Shown here one piece after another: positions 3,256-15,654 of a DNA stretch of 64,000 nt. Each line of letters starts with the position of its first letter. Position 1 is the first letter of the stretch. The stretch is taken from positions 1 to 64,000 of the forward strand of contig JBGTGT010000054.1 in the NCBI GenBank assembly GCA_041746575.1. The letters run 5' to 3'. A program made the translations under genes and the position numbers. The stretch is from Microcystaceae cyanobacterium (lineage in GTDB: Bacteria > Cyanobacteriota > Cyanobacteriia > Cyanobacteriales > Microcystaceae). The notes under the pieces were generated by a model that searched no databases, was not told where the DNA came from, and saw nothing but the letters and a program-made list of their open reading frames with translations.

Positions 3256-3804
3256 TTAGAGGCGAGGACGCAATTCAATCACTTTTTCTTTGATGGTAAC
3301 GTCATAATTTTGGTAGAAAGTTTGTCCCAGTAAGCCTAAACTCATCGGATGGGAAGGATTAATAGAAACGGGTAAGTTTCTGACTACAAATTTACCTGAA
3401 GCAGCACTATTAACCTGTCCAATACCAATAGGAACAACCCCTCCTGCCGTCTGAGAATAAGCCGTTTTTTGGGTTTTAACTCCAATCGATTCTGCCATAT
3501 CAGTGGTAATCATAATCCCACTTGCTCCCGTATCAAATAGCATTTCAAAAGTTTGTTTGCCGTTGAAGGTAATATCTACCGTTGGAATCCCACTGACGCG
3601 CCGTTTAATAGGGATTTGAACGACGTTTTTGTTGGAACTGGCAGAAGTAGAGGGGGAGGAATTTCCGTGGCATAATCCTCCTAAATCGATGCTTTGGCCA
3701 TTACTTCCCTGCATATAACAGTTTGACTGAGCATGAAGGGGAAAAAAGGGAGAAAAAAGTATCAATCCAGTCGTGCTTAAGAGTATGCAGAGAGGGAATT
3801 TCAT
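3256..3804 (-). CDS. Secreted retropepsin-like (clan AA) aspartic protease
   Basis: FDTGAS catalytic motif and GLLGQ; signal peptide from likely ATG 3804 (ORF open to 3837); Cys-pair N-terminal module CYMQ...IDLGGLC. Confidence 0.85.
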   Translation of the reverse strand: MKFPLCILLSTTGLILFSPFFPLHAQSNCYMQGSNGQSIDLGGLCHGNSSPSTSASSNKNVVQIPIKRRVSGIPTVDITFNGKQTFEMLFDTGASGIMITTDMAESIGVKTQKTAYSQTAGGVVPIGIGQVNSAASGKFVVRNLPVSINPSHPMSLGLLGQTFYQNYDVTIKEKVIELRPRL

Positions 3805-3924
3805 GATCTGAAAAACTCCATTGAGAGTAATTATCATTCAGTATTCCCATCAGAAAAAAAGAATTGACATTAATGCCCAAAATTCCGTAATTCTACGCAT
3901 CTAAAACGATTAAAGTAGATAAAA

Positions 3925-6900
3925 TTACTGAGAATGGATTTGTGTTAACTTAGCCTTTACCCAGTTCTCATCAAAAATCGTTCGATAAATTTGATTATGA
4001 ACAGTTAGATAATTATCTTGTTGACATATTAATCCTGATAGACATAGCTCTTGATCATCTAAATTATCAGAAAATTTCACCCTATCTTGACTTAATATTT
4101 TTTGATAACGTTGTAAAAGAGTAGCAGAATTTTGACTTTTAAGGATTCGATTTTGAATAGTGCGCAAATGCTCTGGCTGATCTTGTGCTTCCCAATTTAA
4201 AATAATATTTCGATAGATTAAATTTTTAATCCATGTTATTTCGTCATCTTCAGATTCTACGAAAGAAAGCTGACGAAGCAATTGAAAAACTTTTTGTGTT
4301 AAAAAAGGCTGTCCGTTGGTCCAAAGTAAAACTGTTTTTAAAACCATTTGAGGATGACGGACTTGTTCAGTTAAACCCTGTAATAAAGGCTGTGCCTCGT
4401 CTTCTTTGAATCCTTCTAATTGAATTTTTTGTCCAATATTAAAAGGTGTTGTCTTCAAATTTGATATTAAGTCCGAAGGTGTCGCTACCCCAAATAAAGC
4501 AAAGGTTAGACGCTTATAATTATGATTAATAAGACGCTGATTATAGCAGGAGCGAATTAAGGCAAAAAACTCATTAGTCGAAAATTTTAAACCTAAAACA
4601 CTATCAATTTCATCTATTAAAATAATTAATTTAGGTTTTTTATCTCCTTCTTGATAGCCAATATTGCCTAAAAGAATATCTTCAATAAATTGGCTCAGTT
4701 TTTGTACAGGGGAAATATCTATTTTTTGATTCCACCACGTTTGAAAATCGACTTTTTTTCTGAGTCCAAAATTGCGTAATAAATCAATGGCTAGTCCTTT
4801 GTACCACTGTTCAATACTGGCATTCTCTCCCCCTATACGAGTTAAGTCAATGGCGGCACAACAATATCCTTCTTGCTGGAAGTAGTGCATCATGCGTCCC
4901 ATTAAACTCGATTTTCCCATTTGACGAGGGTTCAAAATATAACAAAATTCTCCTTTTTTTAAAGCTTTATAAAGGTAACGATCGGCTGAACGAACGACAT
5001 AAGTCGGTGCGTCAATGGGAAGGCTTCCCCCCACTTGATAATCGAAATAAGAGGGATATTCAGCACTTTTTAATAAACTATTTTCAAACTGGAGTTTTGC
5101 CTGAGTTGCTTTGAGAACTTCTAAGGTTTGAGATAGTTCATAGGTGCGTTCTTTTACTCTCTGTTCTAGGGTAAGATTAGCTTCAGCTAATTGATTTTTA
5201 GCGCGTTGTAAAGCAGTATTCTTGCGTGTTAATTCTTGGGTAAATCGTAATCGTTCAATTTCAATTGATTTTCGTTGAGTGATATCTTGAAAAGCGGCGA
5301 TCGCATAAATAACATTGCCTCGCTCATCAAAAATAGGAGTTGCCCAAACTTCCAACGGAAGAATGCTATTATCTCGATGAATTTCTAAATCTTCTACCGT
5401 TATACTTTCCCCTTTTAATGCTCTTGCGATCGGTTGTTTTTCACTGGGATATAATTGATTTGTTCCCGAACAATAGGCTTGATAAACTTCAGGCAGTTGT
5501 TGAACCGAGATGCCTATTTTAATCTCTTGTCCAAGTAAATCTTGTGCCATTTGGTTAGCATAGTAAACTGTACTATTCGCATCTAAAACAAAAATACCGA
5601 CGGGAACGGCTTCTAAAAGTTGCGCTAATTTTTGTTCACTTTCTCGCAAAGCCATCTCTGCTTGTTGGCGTTCTTGGATTTCTTGTGTTAATTGAAAATT
5701 AAGCTGTTTCATGTTACGATAAAGTTGAGCATTTTTGATTGAAATTGCGGCTTGTGCTGATAGGATTTTCAAAACCTCAATATGATTTGACGTAAACGCT
5801 CCTACGATCAAATTATTTTCTAAGTACAGAATTCCCTCAAGTTCTCTTTGATTATGAAGGGGTAAGCAAAGAATGGATTTAGCTTGAGTGTGTTGAATAT
5901 ACGGATCTTGAGTAAAATTTCCTTGATGGGTTGCATGGTCTAAAACAACCGTTTCTTGCTTGCGTATAACATAGTTAACAATTGATGTTGATACGATATC
6001 ATTAAAATGTTGACAATTTTGATCATCCGTACAAGACAACACCGTAATTATATTATCTTGAATCGTCGCTTCTGCACCAATAATCCAGCGTTCGACTTGA
6101 CTCGAATCAGGTAATAGTAGAAAGCCTCTTTGTGCGCCAGCATTTTCAATAACGGTGGTCATTAAGCGATTTAATAAGTTATCCAAAACGATTTCTTCCG
6201 CTAAAGTTTGAGAGGCTTTAATTACAGTGATTACATCAAAAATATTTGTTTGCTTAGTGGTTGTTGAATCAATATTATTACGCTGAATTTCGCTTCCTTG
6301 ATGATTAAGGTATTCTAAAAAGAATGAAGAATATTGGTCTTGTAAATGTTCAACTTTACGCTTTGCACCCCACCGTTGATAATCATATAAAGCTTCTTTA
6401 AAATAGAGTTTTGCAATTTTTTTATTGCCTCTATTTAGCCAAAATTTTGCGGCTAGTTCGTTGGCTAATGCTTGATGATGAATAAATTCATTCTCTTGAG
6501 CTGCTTCAATTGCTTTATCGTAAAGATCAATGGCTTGAAGTTCTCTTTGATTAATACGAGCAATTTCTGCTGATATGAGTAAATATTGATGATAGTAGTT
6601 TTCAGAGCAGTTTTGTGACCAACGTTCAAATTTGTCTTGATAGGTCTGCAGAATTTTTTGATATTGCTTTTGTTTATTAATATCTGAATCTAAATATAAA
6701 GCTGTTAAAATAAGACTATGATAAAAGTAATATTCTGGATAAGTAATCGTTCCTTTCATAAATTCAATGGTTTTCTGATTTTCTTGTGCCATGGATAAAG
6801 CATCTTGATAATTATTGTAAATATAAAAAACTTGGGTTTTTAAGGTTTGATAAACACACACACCTGACAGAAACGAAGTATTTTGCCACATTGCCAAGGC

Positions 6901-9900
6901 GTCTAATTCATTAAACTTTTCATCACTTAAAGAAAATATTGTTTCTGTTTTGCCTTGTAAATTAAAAATAAAATATCGATAAAGTTCTTGTAATTTTGCG
7001 AAGACATGATTACGGGTTGTTTTTAAAAAGTCAGTGAATTGATTAGATTCCTGCAATATGCTCTCAAAATCATTTCCTGATGCCAATCGCTGTAAAATAA
7101 TATTCGAAGAACTATAACTGGCAAATACATCACCAATTTCTGCTCCTACTTGATAACTTTTTTTAAGAATAGCAATATTGGATTTTAAAGATTGTTTCCA
7201 TAATCCGACTAAATTCCCAAAAGTTGATAAAGTTTTACATACTAAATTTCGGTCGTTATATTTCTCTACTAATGCCAAAGAAAGCAAACCAAATTGATAA
7301 CCAAATTCATAATCATCTAACCGCCAAAACGCAACAAAACTCCAAGCGGTATAACCATAAGAGGACATAGCAGAATTGCCATATTGAATAGATAAATTAA
7401 CCATTTTTAGGGCAAATAATGCAAAAAAATCTTGATTTGTAAAATAAGCAGGACCAATCGCATTTAAAAGTAATTTCATACAAGCTACGATTGCGGGATT
7501 TTCTATTTCTGGTGCTCGAATCAATTCAGAGATATTAATTTCTTGAAGGCTAAGAGCGTATTTTTCTAATTCTTTGGTAAATTCATCTAAAATATCTTGC
7601 TGAGTATCTCTAGGAATATTAATATCAAATAATTTTAAACTTTCAATACACAAGTTAACGCATTTCTCAAATTTTCCTGTATTATCGTATAAAGCTAATC
7701 GTACACTTTGAATTTCCGCTTTTTCTAGATTTGACTTTGTCTTAGTTAGTAGAAAATCGAACATTTTTTCTGCTTCTTCAAAATCACCACAAAGGTAATA
7801 GCATTCTGAACATTCCTTATATAAATTAAAAGCAAGATGATAGTGAATTTGCCAACTTTTTTCTGAAAGAAACGCTGTTCCCTTTTTAAAATATTTTAAA
7901 GCTGTTAAGTAAGCGGTTGAACTTTTTGCTTTTTGGCCGGCTTGTAAGTTAAGTTTAGCTAATTCAAAACGCTCGTACTGTTCGACAATATGGGGAGAAC
8001 CTTCATTTAAGTGATTAACAATATCAAAAATTCTGTCTGCTAACTCTTGAGTGTTCACTTCGTTTTTTAGCAATCTACCAATCTTAAGATGAATTTTTTG
8101 TTTTTGAGTATCAGAAATCAAGGTATATGCTGATTGTTGTACCTTATCGTGTAAGAATTTATAATCAAATTTAAACTGTTTTGCTAAATTATTGATATTA
8201 TGAGAGCCGAGGGTTAAAGGAATTTTATAACTATCACTTAAAGGAATAATAAGTCCTTGCTGTAGACAAGGCCAAAGGTCAATTGCTGTTTGTGCTAAAG
8301 ATTTATTATAAATAACCGATAAAGTGTGCAAATCAAATGGGTTACCAAGACAGGAAGCAAGTTGTAATAATTCTTGTGCTGTGGAATTAAATTTTTGAAT
8401 TTTTTTGACCATCAAATCAATAACATTTTCAGTAATATCACACGTTTTAATGATTTGAACATCCCATTGCCAATCATTCACATTATCATCAAAATATATA
8501 AATTGGTCGTTATAAAGAGTCTGCAATAACTGGTTTAAAAAGAAAGGATTGCCATTGGTTTTTCTCCGGCACACTTCTGCTAACGGTTGAATATCTTCTT
8601 CTTGGCAATGAAGTGTATCTGTTAGTAAATGTCGCACATGAGAAATATCTAAAGAGTGAACGGAAATCGTCTCAATTATTGGGTTTCTCTGACGAATTGC
8701 GTCTAAGGTTAACATTAAAGGATGGGAAGAACTCACTTCGTTATCCCGATAAGCTCCAATTAATAATAAATACGATCTATTCTCTGCAGTCATTAATAGT
8801 TGAATTAAGTTTAAGGAAGCAGAATCGGCCCACTGTAAATCATCTAAAAATAAAACTAAAGGATGCTCAGGTTGAGTAAAGACTTTAATAAAATCTTGGA
8901 AGACTAAGTTAAAGCGATTTTGGGATTCACTAGCATTTAATTGCAGTACAGGGGGTTGCTCTCCAATAATTAATTTTAACTCTGGAATGACATCAATTAT
9001 AATCTGAGCATTGACCTTTAATGCGGTTAATAATTTATCTCTCCATTTTCCAATATTTTCAGAATTTTCCGTTAATATTTGGCTCATCAAATTCCGGAAT
9101 GCTTTAAGCGGTGCAGCATAAGGAATATCTCTTTGATATTGGTCAAATTTTCCGCTAATAAAAAATCCTCTGTTCTCAACAATGGGTTTGTGAATTTCAT
9201 AGACAATTGATGATTTACCAATACCTGAATACCCTGTAACTAATACCATTCGAGTTGCTCCTTGACTGACTTGAGCAAAAATGGTGATAAGGGTTGTTAC
9301 TTCCTTTTCTCGACCATAGAGCTTTTGGGGAATTTGTAATTGATGAGATAAGTCTTTTTGAGCAATGGGAAATAAAAGAATCTGACCCGTATTTGTTAGT
9401 TGGTTAAGACAAATTTCTATATCTTTTTGCAATCCTAATGCAGTTTGGTATCTTTCTTCTGCTGTTTTAGAAAGCAACTTGAGAATCATTTTAGCGATAA
9501 CTTCAGGAATTTGCGCATTATAGGACTTTGGTGAAATAGGCATTTTAGCAATATGACAATGAATGAGTTCCATCGGATCAGTTGTCTGAAAAGGAATAAC
9601 TCCTGTCAACATTTCATAAAACGTAATTCCCAAAGAATAAAGGTCTGTCCGATAATCAATTGAACGATTCATTCGCCCTGTTTGTTCAGGAGATATATAA
9701 GCCAATGTCCCTTCAAGTAAATTGATATGATGAGGATTTTGCCGTTCTTCTAATAAAGTGGAGACACCAAAGTCGGCAATTTTAACTATCTGATTGATAG
9801 GATTAATAATAATATTAGAAGGATTAATATCTTTATGAATAATTTTATGATGATGAATTTCTGCCAAAGCTTTTGTTAAGTCAATTGCAATTCTCAAAAA

Positions 9901-10215
9901 GGTTATTAAGTCTAATGTTTGATACGACAAAAAGTTCTTTAATGATTCTCCTCCAAAATCTTCAAGAATGAGTGCTAGTCCATTATTATACTTTTTTAAC
10001 CCAAGGGCTTTAACGACGCCTGATAAGCGCAATTGCTTCATGATTTTATATTCGTGGCGAAATCGAACGATGTCTTTGATATCGGGGTAATCTGCCTTTA
10101 AAATTTTTAAGATGACTAATCGTTGATCTTTTTCTCTCATTCCCCGAAAGGTGACTGTTTTGAGATCTTCTGCGATGGTTTCTCTGACTTGATAACCTTT
10201 AAGCGGATGGCTCAT
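3925..10215 (-). CDS. Giant Ser/Thr kinase - AAA ATPase - helical repeats - GAF - PAS - coiled coil - C-terminal AAA-35 ATPase
   Basis: Kinase [28 protein letters not shown]-loop GYSGIGKS and [13 protein letters not shown] ([22 protein letters not shown]); PAS ([21 protein letters not shown]); second P-loop YQVGGSLP...RQMGKSSL...IDEIDS. Likely ATG 10215 (ORF open to 10227). Confidence 0.9.
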
Positions 10216-10245
10216 AATATGTATCAATTAAGTATTAAAAAAATG

Positions 10246-12606
10246 TTAAAGATAAAAATCTCGTTCATGGGTAATTTTTTGCGTATATTCAACTCCAAAT
10301 TCATGTTTTAAAATCGCGCGAGTTGCTTGCATTCCTGAAATAACCGTCGGTTCAACGGCACCCGCATTAAAACCATTATCAATCCAATCTCCTGCTAAAT
10401 AAAGGCGATTAAATCCCGATTTATCCGTCTTGAGACGATACTTAATACTGCCGGGTAATGACATCACATAACGTTCAGTTGGAATAATATTAATACGCCA
10501 ATATTGTTCATAAAAGCGATTAACGCCTTCACTGCCATTACAATCTACTAATAAGTTCCAATCTAACCCTTGAGGATTAGCTGGCGTGGTTGCTTGCGGC
10601 CACAGATAACCCATATTATTTGATAAAAAATGGAGGGTATCTTGATGAATTTTATCTTGTTGTTGTTGAGGAAATTGATCATTTTCGGGTGGCGCAATAC
10701 CAGGGTCAGGAATTACCCCTGTAAAGTAAGCTAAGTTATAAGGAAAATCTTCACATTGCCAGTTTTCCCGCTCAATTAAATAAGTCATATCGGCATAGGT
10801 ATCTAGGGGTTCAACATAAGAGCCTAAAACGGGACTTTGACGTTGCCAACCGAGTTGAGATAAGGTTTCTTTTAACCATAATTGTCCCCCTTGAGTAGTG
10901 ACGGTTTTGACGTGTGTAATCATGTCTCGCCATGCTTGGCTTGCCGCCATTAATTCAGGACAAATATAAGGCAGTGCGGCAATTGAAATACCTAATACAA
11001 CAATATCAAAATCCTGTTCTGCTTTAAGGGTAATTTGTTCAACAGGTTGCCATGTCGTCCAAAAAGATTCAAGAGGATTGTTAAAAGGATTTTCAGCAGT
11101 TATTGTCCTTAATGTTTCTCCTTGCTCTAATTGTTCATAAAGCGGTTCAGATGGCCAGCTAAGAAGTCGTTTTACTTCAATTAATGGTTGATATTCAGCT
11201 TGATTTTTAACCGTTGCTTGGATATTAATTTTAATGGTTTCAATCGACTTTCTATCTTCTGATAGTCCTAAATTAGCGACATTATGAAAGAACTTAAACT
11301 TAACACCTCGACGTTTTAAAACCTCATACAATGGCGTAAGTACAACATCTCCCATCCCTGCTTGCATTTTCCACATAATAGCACCTTCGTATTCAAAAAG
11401 CATTTTACTAATAGCACGAAGAGCAACTCCTGCGGCAAGACGGGGTTTTTTGATATCACCATTTTCATAACCGTAAACGAGATCATAAATCATTCTGACG
11501 GGAGGGGATTGAATCGTCATTTCTAACGCACCGTGCCGTCTTAACCAATCGGCATAATCATAGTTATTCAAACTATCAAAGCATCCTTTTAAAAGAATGC
11601 CATCTGCTAATAACCCTCGAATATTAGACATGCCAAAATTGAGTAAAATCAGCCGTCGGCGAAGATAATCATTCTCTAATAATCGTTCATTGGCATAAAT
11701 CGGTTCCATTAAGGATCTCAAAGAAGATAAAATATTACCTAACAACTGGGAATACAACGTAATCACATCTTCTTGAACGTCTTCAATATCTCGAATTAAA
11801 AAAGAAATAATTCGCAAAGCGAGCGCAAACAAACCGCTTCCCGATGTCATGTTCGGCACTTCATTAACGGCAGTTTCTAAATCCTGTTGGCGACGTTCGT
11901 ACCATTCCCCCTCAACTAAACGAAAAGGCTTTTCAATGACCGATTGTAATAAAAGATAAGGAACAAACGGTAAAGCCGGCAGAACAGCAGGAAATAATTG
12001 CCACGTTTTTAATCGGGTAATTTTTAATAAAAAGCTTGTAAAAACATCATTTGATTGTTGTGGATTTTGAGATAACCAATCACCCGATTTTAAGGTAGGA
12101 GATTCATTCCAAACTTGATACATATAGCGTAAGGCCGTTTCGATATGTTCTAGAATAGAATGACTGGCTCCCCCTTCCCAAGGCACTAAGTTATTGGTCG
12201 GAAAGTTAGTATCCCAAGGTACCCAACGATTTTGATAAAATTCTTGTAACGAGACAAAACTGTGGGGTTTAAAGGCATCAGAAACCGATTGAAACGGACC
12301 ATTTCCGCCTAACTCTTCATAAGCTTGTTTTAGAATGCGAAAGGCATCTTCATAGAAGCCAAAAAAGATATGCAATCCGTGTTCTTCAATGCGATAATTG
12401 GGGATATCACGATTTTCTCCTTGAGAAGGTTTTACATTGCGGCCGCTTGCGCATTTTCCCCCTAAACGCCACCCCATTTGATAAACAGTAATCTCATAAA
12501 GAGCGTTCCAATTGGGTTGATTAGTGAGTTCCCAAACCGTTACTAAAGAACCTAATCCACCTCCTAAAACGGCAATTTTCTTTTTTTTGGGAAGCATATC
12601 TTTCAT
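10246..12606 (-). CDS. Large FAD/NAD(P)-binding oxidoreductase (COG3349 / carotene desaturase-like superfamily)
   Basis: Rossmann IAVLGGGLG; WRLGGK; EEHGLHIFFGFY; C-terminal LYLAGDW...AGAVE..ISG. RBS AGGAG at 12616-12620 precedes ATG 12606. Confidence 0.8.
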   Translation of the reverse strand: MKDMLPKKKKIAVLGGGLGSLVTVWELTNQPNWNALYEITVYQMGWRLGGKCASGRNVKPSQGENRDIPNYRIEEHGLHIFFGFYEDAFRILKQAYEELGGNGPFQSVSDAFKPHSFVSLQEFYQNRWVPWDTNFPTNNLVPWEGGASHSILEHIETALRYMYQVWNESPTLKSGDWLSQNPQQSNDVFTSFLLKITRLKTWQLFPAVLPALPFVPYLLLQSVIEKPFRLVEGEWYERRQQDLETAVNEVPNMTSGSGLFALALRIISFLIRDIEDVQEDVITLYSQLLGNILSSLRSLMEPIYANERLLENDYLRRRLILLNFGMSNIRGLLADGILLKGCFDSLNNYDYADWLRRHGALEMTIQSPPVRMIYDLVYGYENGDIKKPRLAAGVALRAISKMLFEYEGAIMWKMQAGMGDVVLTPLYEVLKRRGVKFKFFHNVANLGLSEDRKSIETIKINIQATVKNQAEYQPLIEVKRLLSWPSEPLYEQLEQGETLRTITAENPFNNPLESFWTTWQPVEQITLKAEQDFDIVVLGISIAALPYICPELMAASQAWRDMITHVKTVTTQGGQLWLKETLSQLGWQRQSPVLGSYVEPLDTYADMTYLIERENWQCEDFPYNLAYFTGVIPDPGIAPPENDQFPQQQQDKIHQDTLHFLSNNMGYLWPQATTPANPQGLDWNLLVDCNGSEGVNRFYEQYWRINIIPTERYVMSLPGSIKYRLKTDKSGFNRLYLAGDWIDNGFNAGAVEPTVISGMQATRAILKHEFGVEYTQKITHERDFYL

Positions 12607-12669
12607 AAAAAACAACTCCTAAATTTGCGACCAAAACAAAGTCAAGAAACAGATACGTAGTCAATCTTA

Positions 12670-13449
12670 TTAAGTTAAAGAGGGTAATTGCAAAACCCAA
12701 GAATTAATCATTTGAAACGCCCCTAATTCAACTTGATCAATTCCTTTAATTATATAATGGCTTCCTGCTTGTAAACCGGGAATAAATGGGTTAGCAATTT
12801 TTACTTCAGCCTGAATCGGACGAATCATTGCTTCCGCAAAATTCCAGATAAAATTCGCGTAAACATAAGGCCCCGCACCAAACAACGTTTTGAGAATTAA
12901 AGGTTGATTCATTAGGGATTTAATGGTTTCAAAATTATTAAAACTTGACGCAGATTGATACTGTCCTGTAACCTCAAAATCCAACTGCATTAAAGGATCT
13001 CGCCAAGGAAAAGAACTCACTTCATAGGTCGGAAAAAAAGGATTTCCTACATTAAAACAAGCCATTTCTTTCGTAAATCCCCAAAAAACATCACCTCCAA
13101 AAATAGCAAGAGGATTATCTAAATTTAATTGAGCAATATACAAAAAATCCTGTTCAACCAAGGCAGGTTTATTAATTTCAGCCAATTGAACAAAAGGGAT
13201 AGAAACAGAACTTTCTAAGTAAGAAACATCATGAAAAAGCAATTGAAATTGACTGAGACTTGCATGCTGATGTTGACCAAAACCGAATAAAATCGGATGG
13301 GTATCAGAGGGGGTAATTTGTTGTTTTCCTAATTTTAATTCAGGGGGTAACATGGCTCGAACCCTGTCAATAGACATCGGCCAAACCACCCAATAAGCTG
13401 AATAAATTCCTTTCAAGACTAACTCTTGCAAAAAAGGAAAATGACTCAT
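12670..13449 (-). CDS. Acetoacetate decarboxylase (ADC)-fold protein
   Basis: VRAMLPPEL, YLES, and GDVFWGFTK (compare ADC GxExWGxPK Schiff-base Lys); RBS GGGAG before ATG 13449. Confidence 0.7.
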   Translation of the reverse strand: MSHFPFLQELVLKGIYSAYWVVWPMSIDRVRAMLPPELKLGKQQITPSDTHPILFGFGQHQHASLSQFQLLFHDVSYLESSVSIPFVQLAEINKPALVEQDFLYIAQLNLDNPLAIFGGDVFWGFTKEMACFNVGNPFFPTYEVSSFPWRDPLMQLDFEVTGQYQSASSFNNFETIKSLMNQPLILKTLFGAGPYVYANFIWNFAEAMIRPIQAEVKIANPFIPGLQAGSHYIIKGIDQVELGAFQMINSWVLQLPSLT

Positions 13450-13471
13450 AATTTTCTCCCAAAAATCCTGA

Positions 13472-14836
13472 TTATTCCTGCGTTTTCTGAGGCTGTCTAG
13501 TAAAATACTGCCGATAGAGTTCACAGTTAACCACAACCCCCCTTTCTGACGGTTTAATCATGCCCAAACTTCTCAGTTTATGAGTCATAATGGCTTCTAG
13601 CTGTACCGGTTCGTTTGCCTGAATCACCGTCAGTAACGACTGAAATAATTCGGGTTGCTGATTTAATACTATCCAATGTCGCTGTAAATGATTAAAATAA
13701 ATTCCGCTAGGCGTCGAAGCTGTCTCTAGCAACTGCTCTAAGGACATTTCCCGACAACTTAGATGATACAAGGCAATGTGAATGAGGGCAGGATGTCCCC
13801 CCACCAAATTCATCAATTGTCTGGCTTCCCCTTCCTGATAGCCGCTAAGCCCGTAACGTTGAGCGAGTTGCTGAACTTGGATTAAGCTGAATTCATCTAG
13901 CTGAATCGGTAAGCCGACATTAAACGGGGATTGATTAATTTGTAGAGGAACGTAGATTTCCGTATTGTGGACGACAATTAGTCTCAATTTCTGCCATAAA
14001 GGTAATCTTTGTGCATCTTCATAGCAAGAACGTAACAAAGGCAAAAAATCTTGGGCAATCTCAGAATACTCAAAAATTTGATTCATTTCATCTAAGGCTA
14101 ACACCAAAGGGGTCTCAATCTTCGAGAGTAAATACTCCTCAAAATACAACGTCCAATTCATTTTGCCATCGAGTTCTTCATCCCAATAATCAGCCAATTT
14201 AGGGTCAAGATCAAGTTTTCTGGCAATATACTTGCACAAACGCCGTAAGAATTGATTGAGATCATTAAAGGTCGCTTTATCGATTTTATCCAAACTGACT
14301 AAAACCGTTTGATAGTCATGGCGACGGCAATCTTCTAACAAACGTAAGAGAAGGGAGGTTTTCCCCATCTGTTGCGGCGCTTTAATTCGCACTAGAGAAC
14401 CCGATTTACGCAATTCTTGCAAAATTCGAGCTTCAAGATCCGTTAATGTTACATAAAAAGGAGAATTTAACGGCATCGCCCCACTGGGATAAGCAGAAGT
14501 TGCCAGCGTCGCATTTTTTGAGATATAAGGCGAAGAAATAGGCAAAGATTCCGCTAGACTTGGTATGCCTGCACTTTGTTCATACCATTGAAGGGCAGTC
14601 CGACAATTTCTTTTGGTAACGTTGCGACCAATCAGCAAGGACAATTTGCGATACAACTCTGGAGCCACCACATTACTAATATATCCGACACTATATCCCC
14701 CTGCTTCAGCAATATTAACGTAGGTTTGCTGATGATAAATTCCTTTTAATACTAAAATTTCCGCCGTATTAACGGGATGCTCTCGAATTTTTAGTAAATT
14801 TAAGTTGATCGTTTCGATTAGCGCATCAAAATTCAT
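13472..14836 (-). CDS. N-terminal winged-HTH + AAA-35 (AAA-like) ATPase
   Basis: HTH-like EILVLKGIY..QTY..IAE..GYS.GYI.NVVAPELYRKLS..IGR.VTKRN; ATPase YPSG.MPL.SPFY, RIKAPQQMGKTSLL, LALDE, NQSPFNVG, GGHP; likely ATG 14836. Confidence 0.85.
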   Translation of the reverse strand: MNFDALIETINLNLLKIREHPVNTAEILVLKGIYHQQTYVNIAEAGGYSVGYISNVVAPELYRKLSLLIGRNVTKRNCRTALQWYEQSAGIPSLAESLPISSPYISKNATLATSAYPSGAMPLNSPFYVTLTDLEARILQELRKSGSLVRIKAPQQMGKTSLLLRLLEDCRRHDYQTVLVSLDKIDKATFNDLNQFLRRLCKYIARKLDLDPKLADYWDEELDGKMNWTLYFEEYLLSKIETPLVLALDEMNQIFEYSEIAQDFLPLLRSCYEDAQRLPLWQKLRLIVVHNTEIYVPLQINQSPFNVGLPIQLDEFSLIQVQQLAQRYGLSGYQEGEARQLMNLVGGHPALIHIALYHLSCREMSLEQLLETASTPSGIYFNHLQRHWIVLNQQPELFQSLLTVIQANEPVQLEAIMTHKLRSLGMIKPSERGVVVNCELYRQYFTRQPQKTQE

Positions 14837-14899
14837 AGACGAGTGAATTAGGAAGGAAATTTTAGCAAAATGACAAGGCAAGGTAACTTTCTTATTGTG

Positions 14900-14990
14900 A
14901 CCGAAAAAGGGGAGATCGATATGAGATTGTTATGAGATATACATGAAGTTTTTTGAATCTTATGAGATAAAGCTGAGATTTACCGAAAAA
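14900..14990. promoter_or_regulatory. Phased direct-repeat array (core TATGAGAT, ~11-bp period), candidate operator
   Basis: TATGAGAT at 14920, 14931 and 14961; variants GGAGAT 14911, CATGAAGT 14942, TTTGAATC 14952, GCTGAGAT 14972; flanked by ACCGAAAAA at 14900 and 14982. Confidence 0.55.
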
Positions 14991-15234
14991 TAAGTCCGTT
15001 ATTGCCCCATTGTTGCCTCAATATTCATGAGAAAAACCTTAATTATATAGATTGTTTCTGGCTTGTCGTACGATTATCCTAGAAAGTAACCATTACATCC
15101 TCTGGCTCAATTTTTTGAGGAAAAATTTACGCCCCTGCCTTCTCTTCCTAATCTTTCTAGACAAAAGGAATCTTGATATCTTCTCACTCGCCGCTTAAAG
15201 CAATAATGACTTTTAGACAAAAAGGAGCAAAAAA

Positions 15235-15654
15235 ATGGAACTTCGCTATTGTATTCTGCAAAAAAGATATCTGAAAGCCACCCCTCAGCAAGGATATCAA
15301 AAATTAGTGAATCGCTTATCCCTCATGCTCTTAGAATATCCCCCCATTGGCCGAAAATTCAAGCGAACTGCAAGACATCGTCGCTACATTGTCTGCTTAA
15401 CGCAACAAATTTTAGCAGATATTCTGCGCAATGACACTAAAATTCAAACTGAGATTCAATGGATCGAAAAATTTACTGATAATTCTTACTTAAGACAGGC
15501 TTTACTTTTTGCCGTATTAGAAGAATATTGTGGCCGAATGATTGAAGATCAACCTTTTTTATTACATCATTTGCGGACACTTTGCCCGTCTCTGCATTCG
15601 ACGGCTAAATGGACTTACGATGGGGACTTATTTACCATTCCTTGTGCCGCCTGA
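15235..15654 (+). CDS. Short protein resembling the N-terminal/central part of cyanobacterial HetZ-related protein 2
   Basis: RBS AGGAG; MELRYCILQKRYL..GYQKLVNRL and LRQALLFAVLEEYC...QPFL resemble remembered family motifs (YRYRILxQRYL; LRNALLFASxEEYC..NQPLL). Confidence 0.55.
   Translation: MELRYCILQKRYLKATPQQGYQKLVNRLSLMLLEYPPIGRKFKRTARHRRYIVCLTQQILADILRNDTKIQTEIQWIEKFTDNSYLRQALLFAVLEEYCGRMIEDQPFLLHHLRTLCPSLHSTAKWTYDGDLFTIPCAA

Follow-up and report, generated by a model that had tools for sequence, protein, structure and literature searches.

LAL (large ATP-binding LuxR) and AfsR/SARP proteins are single-chain STAND transcription regulators that are often cluster-situated. Among kinases, the cbSTKIII "dual protein kinases" (HstK/Alr2258, Pkn40/Pkn41) were described by Zhang et al. 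(2007, PMC2176072), and PknK of M. tuberculosis is a soluble, STAND-bearing kinase that phosphorylates VirS and controls the neighbouring mymA monooxygenase operon (PMC4601284). Pairs of neighbouring STAND NTPase genes have been described as nSTAND2, for which a conserved Arg and a hetero-multimer were proposed and which was placed closer to mitoribosomal S29/DAP3 (Kaur et al. 2021, PMC8195603); for all three reports, we rely on excerpts. Here we analyse a locus in a 64,000-nucleotide stretch of the genome of an uncultured hot-spring Microcystaceae cyanobacterium (assembly GCA_041746575.1, contig JBGTGT010000054.1, positions 1 to 64,000; hereafter the window), in which two enzyme genes lie between the gene of a small, putatively DNA-binding AAA_35 protein and that of a giant sensor ending in a second AAA_35 module. 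With moderate confidence, we read this locus as a cluster-situated, phosphotransfer-free transmitter/receiver signalling unit with an enzyme cassette. It would be an undescribed relay for a small metabolite, because AAA_35 takes the place of a histidine kinase, a neighbouring DNA-binding protein carries the sister module, and two enzymes are encoded between them.

Open reading frame (ORF) calls place four genes on the minus strand, transcribed in the order type-A AAA_35 protein, ADC-like protein, flavin adenine dinucleotide (FAD)-dependent oxidoreductase and giant sensor. The type-A gene (13472..14836) encodes 454 residues from a probable ATG at 14836, its ORF being open to a TTG at 14881. The ADC-like gene (12670..13449) encodes 259 residues from a plausible ATG at 13449 within ORF 12670-13536, the oxidoreductase gene (10246..12606/12615) 786-789 residues with its most plausible ATG at 12606, and the giant gene (3925..10227) 2100 residues. 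The intergenic gaps measure 22 bp, 54-63 bp and 18-30 bp, the ranges reflecting the choice of start codon, and a terminator scan that itself did not perform above chance revealed no intrinsic-terminator-like site in any of the three. The sequencing runs listed for the region are four DNA runs from one study, with none of RNA. The original prediction, made from the letters and ORF translations, had described four co-oriented genes with short gaps, and the ORF calls together with the Pfam domains bear this out; the motifs that it quoted, AYPSGAMPLNSPFY...KAPQQMGKT in gene 1 and ...RQMGKS in gene 4, are present as well.

The two AAA_35 modules (PF14516, curated Pfam cut-off 27 bits) belong to distinct subtypes, as had been anticipated. 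Gene 1 scored 445.4 bits over residues 131-461 and the C-terminus of the giant 125.1 bits, both above the cut-off. The same split ran through the whole genome of the window (4.2 Mb, 134 contigs), where six of 13 AAA_35 matches scored 425-476 bits and seven scored 103-129 bits; we refer to the former as type A and to the latter as type B. In this genome, type-A modules carry outputs (N-terminal heads of about 115 residues in four proteins, REC and Trans_reg_C domains in one and GGDEF in one), and type-B modules carry sensors (WD40 in four, CHASE2 in one and kinase-AAA_16-GAF-PAS in two). Sequence comparisons showed that the nucleotide-binding motifs are intact in both subtypes. The Walker A GK and R269 are present in 16 of 16 type-A sequences and the Walker B Asp in 14 of 16, and the RQxGKS and DE motifs and R192 are invariant in all 27 type-B sequences. 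Both subtypes have in common a [ST]PFN[VI]G motif.

The type-A protein comprises a probable helix-turn-helix (HTH) head (residues 1-88), a disordered linker (90-111) and an AAA_35 STAND-like NTPase (about 113-454). In its AlphaFold model (pLDDT 85.4), the NTPase is NOD-like and includes a helical and a winged-helix subdomain. Fold comparison with VIA-align against 48,161 chains, with which Foldseek agreed, placed this module closest to the archaeal ATPases 2qen (Z 21.3; 310 residues, root-mean-square deviation 4.0) and 2fna (Z 20.7), followed by plant NLR resistosomes (Z about 17), MalT (8bob, 15.8), CED-4 (15.5) and ORC/Cdc6 (about 15). Avs proteins and mitoribosomal small-subunit chains (Z 12.9), which we take to be S29/DAP3, were also among the matches. 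The module thus combines Walker A, Walker B, a conserved Arg and a fold like that of solved STAND or ORC/Cdc6 ATPases, the features by which STAND/NOD proteins are recognised.

The head of the type-A protein had been predicted to be a winged helix, and this reading was rejected. In the AlphaFold model of the whole protein, residues 3-88 form five helices and no wing (pLDDT 81-90), and a profile built from 14 type-A heads best matched the NarL/LuxR-type HTH of the response regulators 4zmr and 4hye (E 0.015-0.018). Pfam searches with the heads at E values of up to 10 gave noise-level matches only, and the protein atlas placed the head with HTH_VMAP-M9 clusters (score 0.86), which we regard solely as a lead. 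Judging from the profile and the model, the head looks like a LuxR/GerE-like helical HTH.

Pfam resolved the giant into the kinase, AAA, GAF, PAS and AAA_35 architecture that had been proposed for it. On the minus strand, from the N-terminus, it has a Ser/Thr kinase (residues 25-262, 9442-10155; Pkinase, 124.9 bits), an AAA_16 STAND NTPase (residues 302-490, 8758-9324) in which GIGKS and LFLDD motifs can be read, a TPR_CHK1 region (residues 1121-1303), a GAF domain (residues 1348-1497, 5737-6186; 61.1 bits), a PAS domain (residues about 1533-1653, 5269-5631) and the type-B AAA_35 module (residues 1734-2086, 3970-5028; 125 bits). The kinase motifs, including SPE, look catalytically intact when read from the sequence. 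Pfam and NCBIfam scans detected no HisKA, HATPase_c or REC domain in gene 1 or gene 4.

The type-B module occupies the slot in which orthologous giants carry HisKA/HATPase or SpoIIE. Eight giants adjoining cyanobacterial homologues of the oxidoreductase were scanned with Pfam, and six end in HisKA and HATPase_c, one ends in SpoIIE, and one is cut by a contig end. Giants of this group share 48-56% identity with the window's giant in the kinase and 38-49% in the AAA_16-TPR block. Outputs of other kinds were found farther afield. At the Deefgea locus (L074), a fusion of the ADC-like protein and the oxidoreductase is followed by a giant ending in HisKA-HATPase-REC-REC-Hpt and then by a REC-GGDEF gene, and an Osedax symbiont (L092) has a similar arrangement, with the same giant type and REC-GGDEF gene, in which the enzymes are separate. 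A Leptospira giant (L110) has a SpoIIE output, and an Arenicellales locus (L070) encodes a SAM-cyclase-AAA_16 protein. Compared in this way, the AAA_35 pair seems to behave like a transmitter and receiver that replaces the histidine kinase and response regulator on one branch of the sensor family. The output module itself is widespread, as 123 of 401 cyanobacterial genomes hold matches to the last 400 residues of the giant with E values of 1e-45 or below; the best of these matches are the C-termini of ORFs of about 1,850-2,114 residues.

Type-A and type-B genes recur as neighbours. In the window's genome, four of the six type-A genes lie near a type-B gene, giving three further A/B loci (L001, L002, L003) and two orphan type-A genes (L005, L006). 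Outside this genome, we analysed 20 loci of giants with a type-B output, picked from the top of the match list rather than at random. Type-A genes were found within the fetched flanks of 12 of these 20 giants, whereas the 12 giants that end in other outputs had none (Fisher p = 6e-4, a value that is overstated since related genomes are not independent). The type-A gene lies directly downstream of the giant in six loci (L028, L029, L030, L032, L033, L034), is convergent with it in L041 and L042 and divergent in L039, and lies upstream with a cassette nested between the two in L036 (an RPE65 gene) and L040 (YcaO, amidohydrolase and an unknown gene); in L035, the twelfth locus, it is part of a fused B-cyclase-A protein. 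Furthermore, type-B and type-A modules are fused in single proteins in L032 (14593-16848, 751 residues) and L035 (12537-15251, 904 residues), the latter with an adenylate/guanylate cyclase domain separating the two modules. The pairing claimed in the original prediction therefore holds beyond the window, at three more loci of its own genome and at 12 of the 20 sampled elsewhere.

To model the complex that had been suggested for the two AAA_35 domains, type-A residues 116-454 and giant residues 1715-2100 were supplied, each as an alignment. The three runs gave ipSAE values of 0.62, 0.62 and 0.68 (median 0.62), and the best of three controls gave 0.00. Of 157 solved complexes, 116 reach the mark passed by this model, as do two of 215 mismatched pairs. 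At least 61% of the contacts agreed between runs, and the pLDDT of the partner was at least 81. In the model, type-A residues 219-234, 259-277 (including the invariant R269) and 302-310 face the P-loop/Walker B side of the type-B module, in a head-to-tail contact of the AAA+ type. The modelled complex thus passed its controls.

From these data, we infer that the two proteins bind each other, and we propose a direction of signalling, a ligand, a DNA target and an enzyme chemistry as follows. The giant would be a PknK/HstK-type sensor, in which a Ser/Thr kinase is combined with an AAA_16-TPR STAND region, GAF and PAS, and its activator would probably be a metabolite connected with the two enzymes encoded beside it. 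Once activated, its type-B module would assemble head-to-tail with the type-A module of the small HTH protein, the type-A surface around R269 packing on the type-B nucleotide site. This assembly would switch the LuxR-like head and thereby transcription from target promoters, in all likelihood those of the cluster itself. The two enzymes would probably act on a hydrophobic, possibly isoprenoid-derived substrate, which would be the ligand that is sensed or the product that is regulated. We also put forward, as less likely than not, a more general form of this proposal: type-B and type-A AAA_35 modules would act widely as transmitter and receiver without phosphotransfer, in parallel to histidine kinase and response regulator, the STAND module of a sensor recruiting or activating its cognate module on an output protein through nucleotide-dependent hetero-oligomerisation. 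The ADC/oxidoreductase product would then be an intracellular, possibly isoprenoid-derived signal that PknK/HstK-type kinase-STAND sensors read in many phyla, and at this locus it would close a loop.

The ADC-like protein belongs to a small clade of short, divergent proteins: among 5.8 billion proteins, only nine share at least 50% identity with it, and its homologues P0001-P0008 carry a precomputed PF06314 (Pfam ADC) label. In the 401 cyanobacterial genomes, only the window's own copy was found, plus a fragment with stop codons (E 5.7e-4). A scan of the genome contigs with the alignment of this clade (A1) gave 54 pattern matches and no relative, and a search of PDB sequences with the same alignment gave no meaningful match. 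The clade has the motif GGDVFWGFTKE, in which Lys127 is invariant (9/9), at the place of the GRE..GFPK(K) motif of the ADC family; we presume that the Lys of the latter is the Schiff-base lysine of ADC. The ADC-like neighbours of other oxidoreductase genes form one family (alignment A2) with the motif SGREVYGFPK, and five of the nine that were scanned scored 30.3-35.3 bits, above the Pfam cut-off. The A2 motif aligned to GGRELWGFPKK of the ADC structure 3bgt with an E value of 0.065, a match that is weak but consistent, and the likeness of these proteins to ADC structures (3bgt; Sbi00515, 4zbo) concerns the GRE..GFPK motif region and consists of weak matches.

The third gene encodes a FAD oxidoreductase, as had been predicted. 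It has an N-terminal GxGxxG Rossmann motif and Pfam matches to NAD_binding_8 and to the C-terminal end of Amino_oxidase, and its model (pLDDT 85.7, pTM 0.87) has an amine-oxidase/phytoene-desaturase-type core with a helical insertion of some 200 residues (around positions 150-340), partly of low confidence. By Foldseek, the closest solved fold was that of phytoene desaturase from rice (5mog; E 7e-15, with a TM score of 0.76 on the target), followed by LSD1, L-amino-acid oxidase and the nicotine oxidoreductase NicA2 at about 1e-11. Unlike phytoene desaturase, the protein has the helical insertion, and the two share 12% sequence identity; scores against the NCBIfam models for HpnE, zeta-carotene desaturase and phytoene desaturase were 18-36 bits, vs cut-offs of 283-622. 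The modelled likeness to phytoene desaturase is one of fold only. The family numbers more than 4,400 matches and includes proteins of about 1,050-1,100 residues with both PF06314 and PF13450. Fusions of the ADC-like protein with the oxidoreductase, found in many bacteria, suggest that the two work as one enzyme unit. Genes with an SQS_PSY domain accompany the pair in L022-L024, L061 and L063, and a truncated oxidoreductase in L065; the RPE65 and SQS_PSY neighbours hint at isoprenoid chemistry. No functional description of this enzyme unit turned up in literature searches, none of which was aimed at it.

In two loci from Acidobacteriaceae metagenome-assembled genomes (MAGs; L120, L125), three to four same-strand ORFs beside a kinase gene match the oxidoreductase and are possible tandem paralogues. 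Some of these ORFs are short (315 and 406 residues) and may represent fragments, or frames that overlap in DNA of high G+C content; this may hold for the four matches in L076 as well. In L024 (8704-15788), one of the loci with an SQS_PSY gene, the giant appears to be split into a 160-residue kinase fragment, about 1.6 kb holding a 286-residue ORF, and the remainder, probably by an insertion.

The four-gene neighbourhood was found elsewhere. A metagenome contig (L011) has the window order, with a C-terminal fragment of a type-A gene, the ADC-like gene (61% identity), the oxidoreductase gene (69%) and the kinase-AAA_16 part of the giant (62-67%), the output module of which is not visible because the contig ends inside the giant gene. 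A second contig (L012), which starts 160 bp before the ADC-like gene, has that gene, the oxidoreductase gene and the start of the kinase, again in the window order. All four gene types occur in a cyanobacterial MAG (L058). Its type-A gene is divergent and is followed by an ADC-like gene from the other clade, an oxidoreductase gene (50%), the gene of a 1923-residue giant ending in AAA_35 and a HAMP-AAA_35 gene. The enzymes thus do co-occur with AAA_35 genes, with all four gene types in L058 and a type-A gene upstream of them in L011, and the idea of an enzyme pair that never does so outside the window is not upheld.

The surveys of the enzymes gave a different conserved partner. A homologue of the oxidoreductase was found in 14 of the 400 other cyanobacterial genomes, and in 12 of these 14 loci it adjoins a kinase-AAA_16-TPR-GAF giant of 1523-1855 residues, with an ADC-like gene upstream; the remaining two are a 2.6-kb contig and a locus without a visible giant. 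None of the 12 giant-bearing loci had a type-A or type-B AAA_35 match, and three of them also hold an SQS_PSY gene. With one genome per species, at least 583 oxidoreductase loci were collected, and we counted features in the best 80, which come from many phyla, overlap the cyanobacterial set and include several close relatives, such that the counts are not independent. The ADC-like protein is adjacent in 35 of these 80 loci, fused in 29, farther away in one and not detected in 15, and an AAA_16-TPR protein of at least 700 residues lies within 3 kb in 36, of which 29 have a kinase domain. L058 is the sole locus of the 80 with a type-B output and the sole one with a type-A gene. The AAA_35 pair was therefore rejected as the conserved partner of the enzymes, a role that falls to the kinase-STAND core (12/14 and 36/80 loci). 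Two of the earlier claims come out divided here. The nesting of the enzymes in the AAA_35 pair stands insofar as they co-occur, whereas what they are conserved with is the kinase-STAND(-GAF) core with any output. Likewise, the switch between a sensor and a regulator AAA_35 protein is backed by its recurrence, by the output swap and by the modelled complex, whereas the enzymes that were to be part of it are tied to the sensor core instead.

The position held by the two enzymes is filled by other cassettes in the loci of giants with a type-B output. Upstream of such giants, ThiF-YcaO occurs with Amidohydro_2 in 10 loci, nine of which have an unknown gene in addition, and rarer cassettes are YcaO with TfuA (one), radical SAM-SPASM (one) and RPE65 (two). 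L042 has an Amidohydro_2 gene only, and L044 a YcaO homologue downstream of the giant; no recognised cassette was seen upstream of the giant in L038, L039, L041 and L046. The cassette slot is thus interchangeable among the YcaO trio, RPE65, radical SAM and the ADC/oxidoreductase pair. In L035 (10323-12491) and L036 (5343-7175), the gene directly upstream of the giant encodes an oxygenase of the RPE65 family (carotenoid-cleavage type). A limited set of literature searches found no account of AAA_35 pairs or of YcaO-linked giants.

This variety of cassettes bears on the alternative that survives best, namely feed-forward control, in which the giant senses an external or physiological cue unrelated to the product and turns on production of the ADC/oxidoreductase metabolite via the B-A pair, the kinase or both, as LAL- and SARP-type cluster-situated regulators would. 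Giants that adjoin unrelated cassettes (YcaO with amidohydrolase, YcaO with TfuA, radical SAM-SPASM, RPE65, ADC/oxidoreductase) remain alike, with 45-55% identity to the window's giant in the kinase and GAF domains and 34-41% in the AAA_16-TPR block, a pattern more easily reconciled with a common cue than with sensing of the product. The partial match of the giant to the NCBIfam TOMM kinase/cyclase model (TIGR03903; 139.3 bits against a cut-off of 705.75, in the AAA_16 region only) points the same way. However, the AAA_16-TPR block is the most divergent one (34-41% vs 48-52% in the kinase), as recognition of a cassette-specific ligand predicts, and we regard feed-forward control as unlikely, albeit worth keeping in view.

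Somewhat less probable still is that the giant works like PknK, phosphorylating the HTH protein, the enzymes or both, while the two AAA_35 modules homo-oligomerise separately. The intact look of the kinase motifs and the PknK-VirS-mymA precedent (PMC4601284, in the excerpt used here) speak for phosphorylation, and homo-oligomers are plausible because both modules keep their nucleotide-binding motifs and an invariant Arg. Such a scheme nevertheless leaves unexplained why a type-A partner accompanied the giant only with a type-B output (12/20 vs 0/12), why type-B and type-A modules are fused in single proteins, and why, in the window's genome, type-A proteins are paired with type-B proteins that have WD40 or CHASE2 and no kinase.

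The fold matches of the type-A module also raise the prospect of a conflict or defence role, which had been offered as an alternative from the outset. In this case, the paired STAND proteins would detect invaders in the manner of NLRs, and the enzymes would be effectors or would produce a molecule that is toxic or acts as a signal. In favour of this, the fold of AAA_35 resembles STAND and NLR proteins, with Avs, resistosomes and CED-4 among its matches, the family is expanded in filamentous cyanobacteria, and the HTH head resembles, by the atlas lead, a domain named for vWA-MoxR conflict systems. A paired-STAND conflict system, nSTAND2, has moreover been described (PMC8195603, excerpt). Against this, Pfam revealed no nuclease, TIR, protease or pore effector in the four genes, and matches in PADLOC-DB were confined to the generic kinase domain (PD-T4-6, mad6, MkoA) in residues 1-295 of the giant, with none for genes 1-3. 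The outputs of orthologous sensors are regulatory (HisKA, REC-GGDEF, PP2C), those of type-A proteins are DNA-binding heads or GGDEF, and both NTPases are intact, whereas one is eroded in nSTAND2 (PMC8195603, excerpt). A defence role is accordingly improbable in our view.

That the enzymes are mere passengers inserted between an ordinary A/B pair we regard as very improbable, even though neither enzyme was found in 20 same-family genomes sampled, all 20 of which have giants with a type-B output, and the G+C content of the giant gene (0.31-0.33 across window positions 4000-10000 vs 0.36-0.45 around it) would suit a recently acquired segment, since L011 and L012 preserve the gene order with proteins that are about 60% identical, and since a kinase-STAND giant neighbours the oxidoreductase gene in 12 of the 14 loci from cyanobacteria and a STAND protein does so in 36 of the 80 from across phyla. 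The low G+C content of the giant and the absence of the enzymes from those 20 genomes fit acquisition of the locus as a unit.

Several observations weigh against our reading of the locus as a transmitter/receiver unit with an enzyme cassette. The pass obtained by the A-B model may reflect generic head-to-tail packing of paralogues, because AAA+ and STAND oligomers are well represented among solved structures. Seven of the 20 giants with a type-B output had no type-A gene in the fetched flanks (L027 is cut by a contig end). In the window's own genome, a second such giant (L004 3584-10411, contig C101, 2056 residues) has no type-A gene in its flanks and has a REC-GerE regulator directly upstream, together with a DUF1400 alpha/beta hydrolase gene. 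The correlated divergence of the A and B domains over 14 adjacent pairs (Mantel r 0.84, reached in none of 5000 permutations), otherwise a point in favour of this reading, is confounded by species relatedness and indicates co-inheritance, not contact. The enzymes track the sensor core regardless of its output and so are uninformative on the AAA_35 step. As to the ADC-fold enzyme of the original prediction, the motif is conserved, while the Pfam ADC score of the protein (PF06314, 24.1 bits) is below the cut-off of 29.8, and its motif aligned with that of A2 at an hhalign probability of 42% (E 2.7e-4), a weak match. Promoter-like sites in the region (54 vs 44.7 by chance, standard deviation 7.9) did not exceed chance. 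Lastly, the heads of the two type-A proteins linked to the repeat described below differ, one being LuxR-like and the other Cro/Xre-like.

The original prediction had also noted a phased repeat array upstream of the four genes and a divergent HetZ-related gene, and both are there. The array (14920..14980, plus strand), a candidate operator, lies between the type-A gene and the HetZ-related ORF and holds TATGAGAT in three exact copies, at 14920, 14931 and 14961 (spaced by 11 and 30), accompanied by degenerate ones. Single copies of this 8-mer show no enrichment in the window (four vs 2.9 expected). However, copies paired within 25 bp were found at only two places across the 4.2 Mb of the genome, compared with none for a reversed control pattern. 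The second place is upstream of a paralogous orphan type-A gene on contig C66 (L005 7296-7344), where there are four exact copies and one degenerate one in the opposite orientation relative to the genes. There too, a short HetZ-related ORF, 47% identical to that of the window, is divergent from the type-A gene, such that the trio of type-A gene, array and divergent HetZ-related ORF occurs twice (window 14837-15654; L005 7189-8128). Because the two type-A heads differ, the protein that binds the repeat may not be the type-A protein, and the array may be bound by another factor, for example the HetZ-related protein. No clusters of the repeat were found in the loci scanned outside the window's genome, and direct repeats upstream of type-A genes in L036, L039, L058 and L133-L135 had no common motif. 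Those of L036 (3849-3897, 3054-3102) are heptamer tandem repeats of the ATTCATA and ATCAGTT types that look ordinary, not like operators.

The HetZ-related ORF itself (15235..15654, plus strand, 139 residues) is divergent from the type-A gene and scored 85 bits against NCBIfam HetZ_rel_2 (cut-off 400). It appears to be a short form, because the match spans positions 50-161 of the 367 in the profile. In three of eight further same-family loci (L133, L134, L135), from three other genera, a short HetZ-related gene likewise diverges from a type-A gene. The view that the ORF is a decayed pseudogene is disfavoured, given that short forms recur in the window's genome and its relatives. On the other side of the locus, directly downstream of the giant, window positions 3256-3837 (minus strand) encode a 193-residue protein with a hydrophobic N-terminus and a retropepsin-like Asp_protease_2 domain (74 bits).

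If signalling by A/B hetero-oligomers is real, it would give bacteria a third way of wiring modules together, next to phosphorelays and one-component regulators, built from the NOD switch of animal and plant immunity and abundant in cyanobacteria. That orthologous sensors exchange HisKA/HATPase, SpoIIE and AAA_35 in nature offers a clean way to test it. Furthermore, the ADC-fold/oxidoreductase unit is a well-defined orphan enzyme and possibly a source of a new signal or pigment-derived metabolite.

Among described systems, cbSTKIII/HstK proteins are like the giant in being large soluble sensors with an N-terminal Ser/Thr kinase and at least one GAF domain (PMC2176072, excerpt). The Nostoc/Anabaena giants beside oxidoreductase genes, with HisKA and HATPase_c, belong to the HstK type, and unlike that family with its C-terminal histidine kinase, the window's giant has PAS and type-B AAA_35; the excerpt of PMC2176072 mentions neither an AAA_16/TPR block nor an enzyme neighbourhood. 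PknK resembles the giant, by domain families, in the fusion of a Ser/Thr kinase to a STAND domain, with an oxidoreductase operon and a DNA-binding protein nearby, but it is described without GAF, PAS or AAA_35, and its link to VirS is phosphorylation (PMC4601284, excerpt). The nSTAND2 systems share with the A/B pair the neighbouring STAND genes of one family, here with two enzyme genes between them, and a conserved Arg in each protein. However, nSTAND2 has one partner with eroded NTP motifs, GT4/HEPN effectors and a mobile conflict operon (PMC8195603, excerpt), whereas in the A/B pair both NTPases are intact, the outputs are regulatory and there is no GT4/HEPN domain; the Pfam scan of the genes gave sub-threshold matches to nSTAND1/3/6 and listed none to nSTAND2.

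MalT combines, as the type-A protein is predicted to do, a NOD NTPase with a DNA-binding head, which in MalT and LAL is of the LuxR type, yet MalT does so in a single chain that includes a helical-repeat sensor. The A/B pair differs from MalT, LAL and AfsR in its two polypeptides and distinct NOD subfamilies, and its sensor chain adds an AAA_16 STAND domain and a kinase. In overall logic, the pair resembles a classical two-component system, in which a sensor with a C-terminal transmitter acts on a separately encoded output protein. Unlike such systems, it has no HisKA, HATPase_c or REC domain, and coupling between its two proteins would instead be achieved by nucleotide-dependent hetero-oligomerisation.

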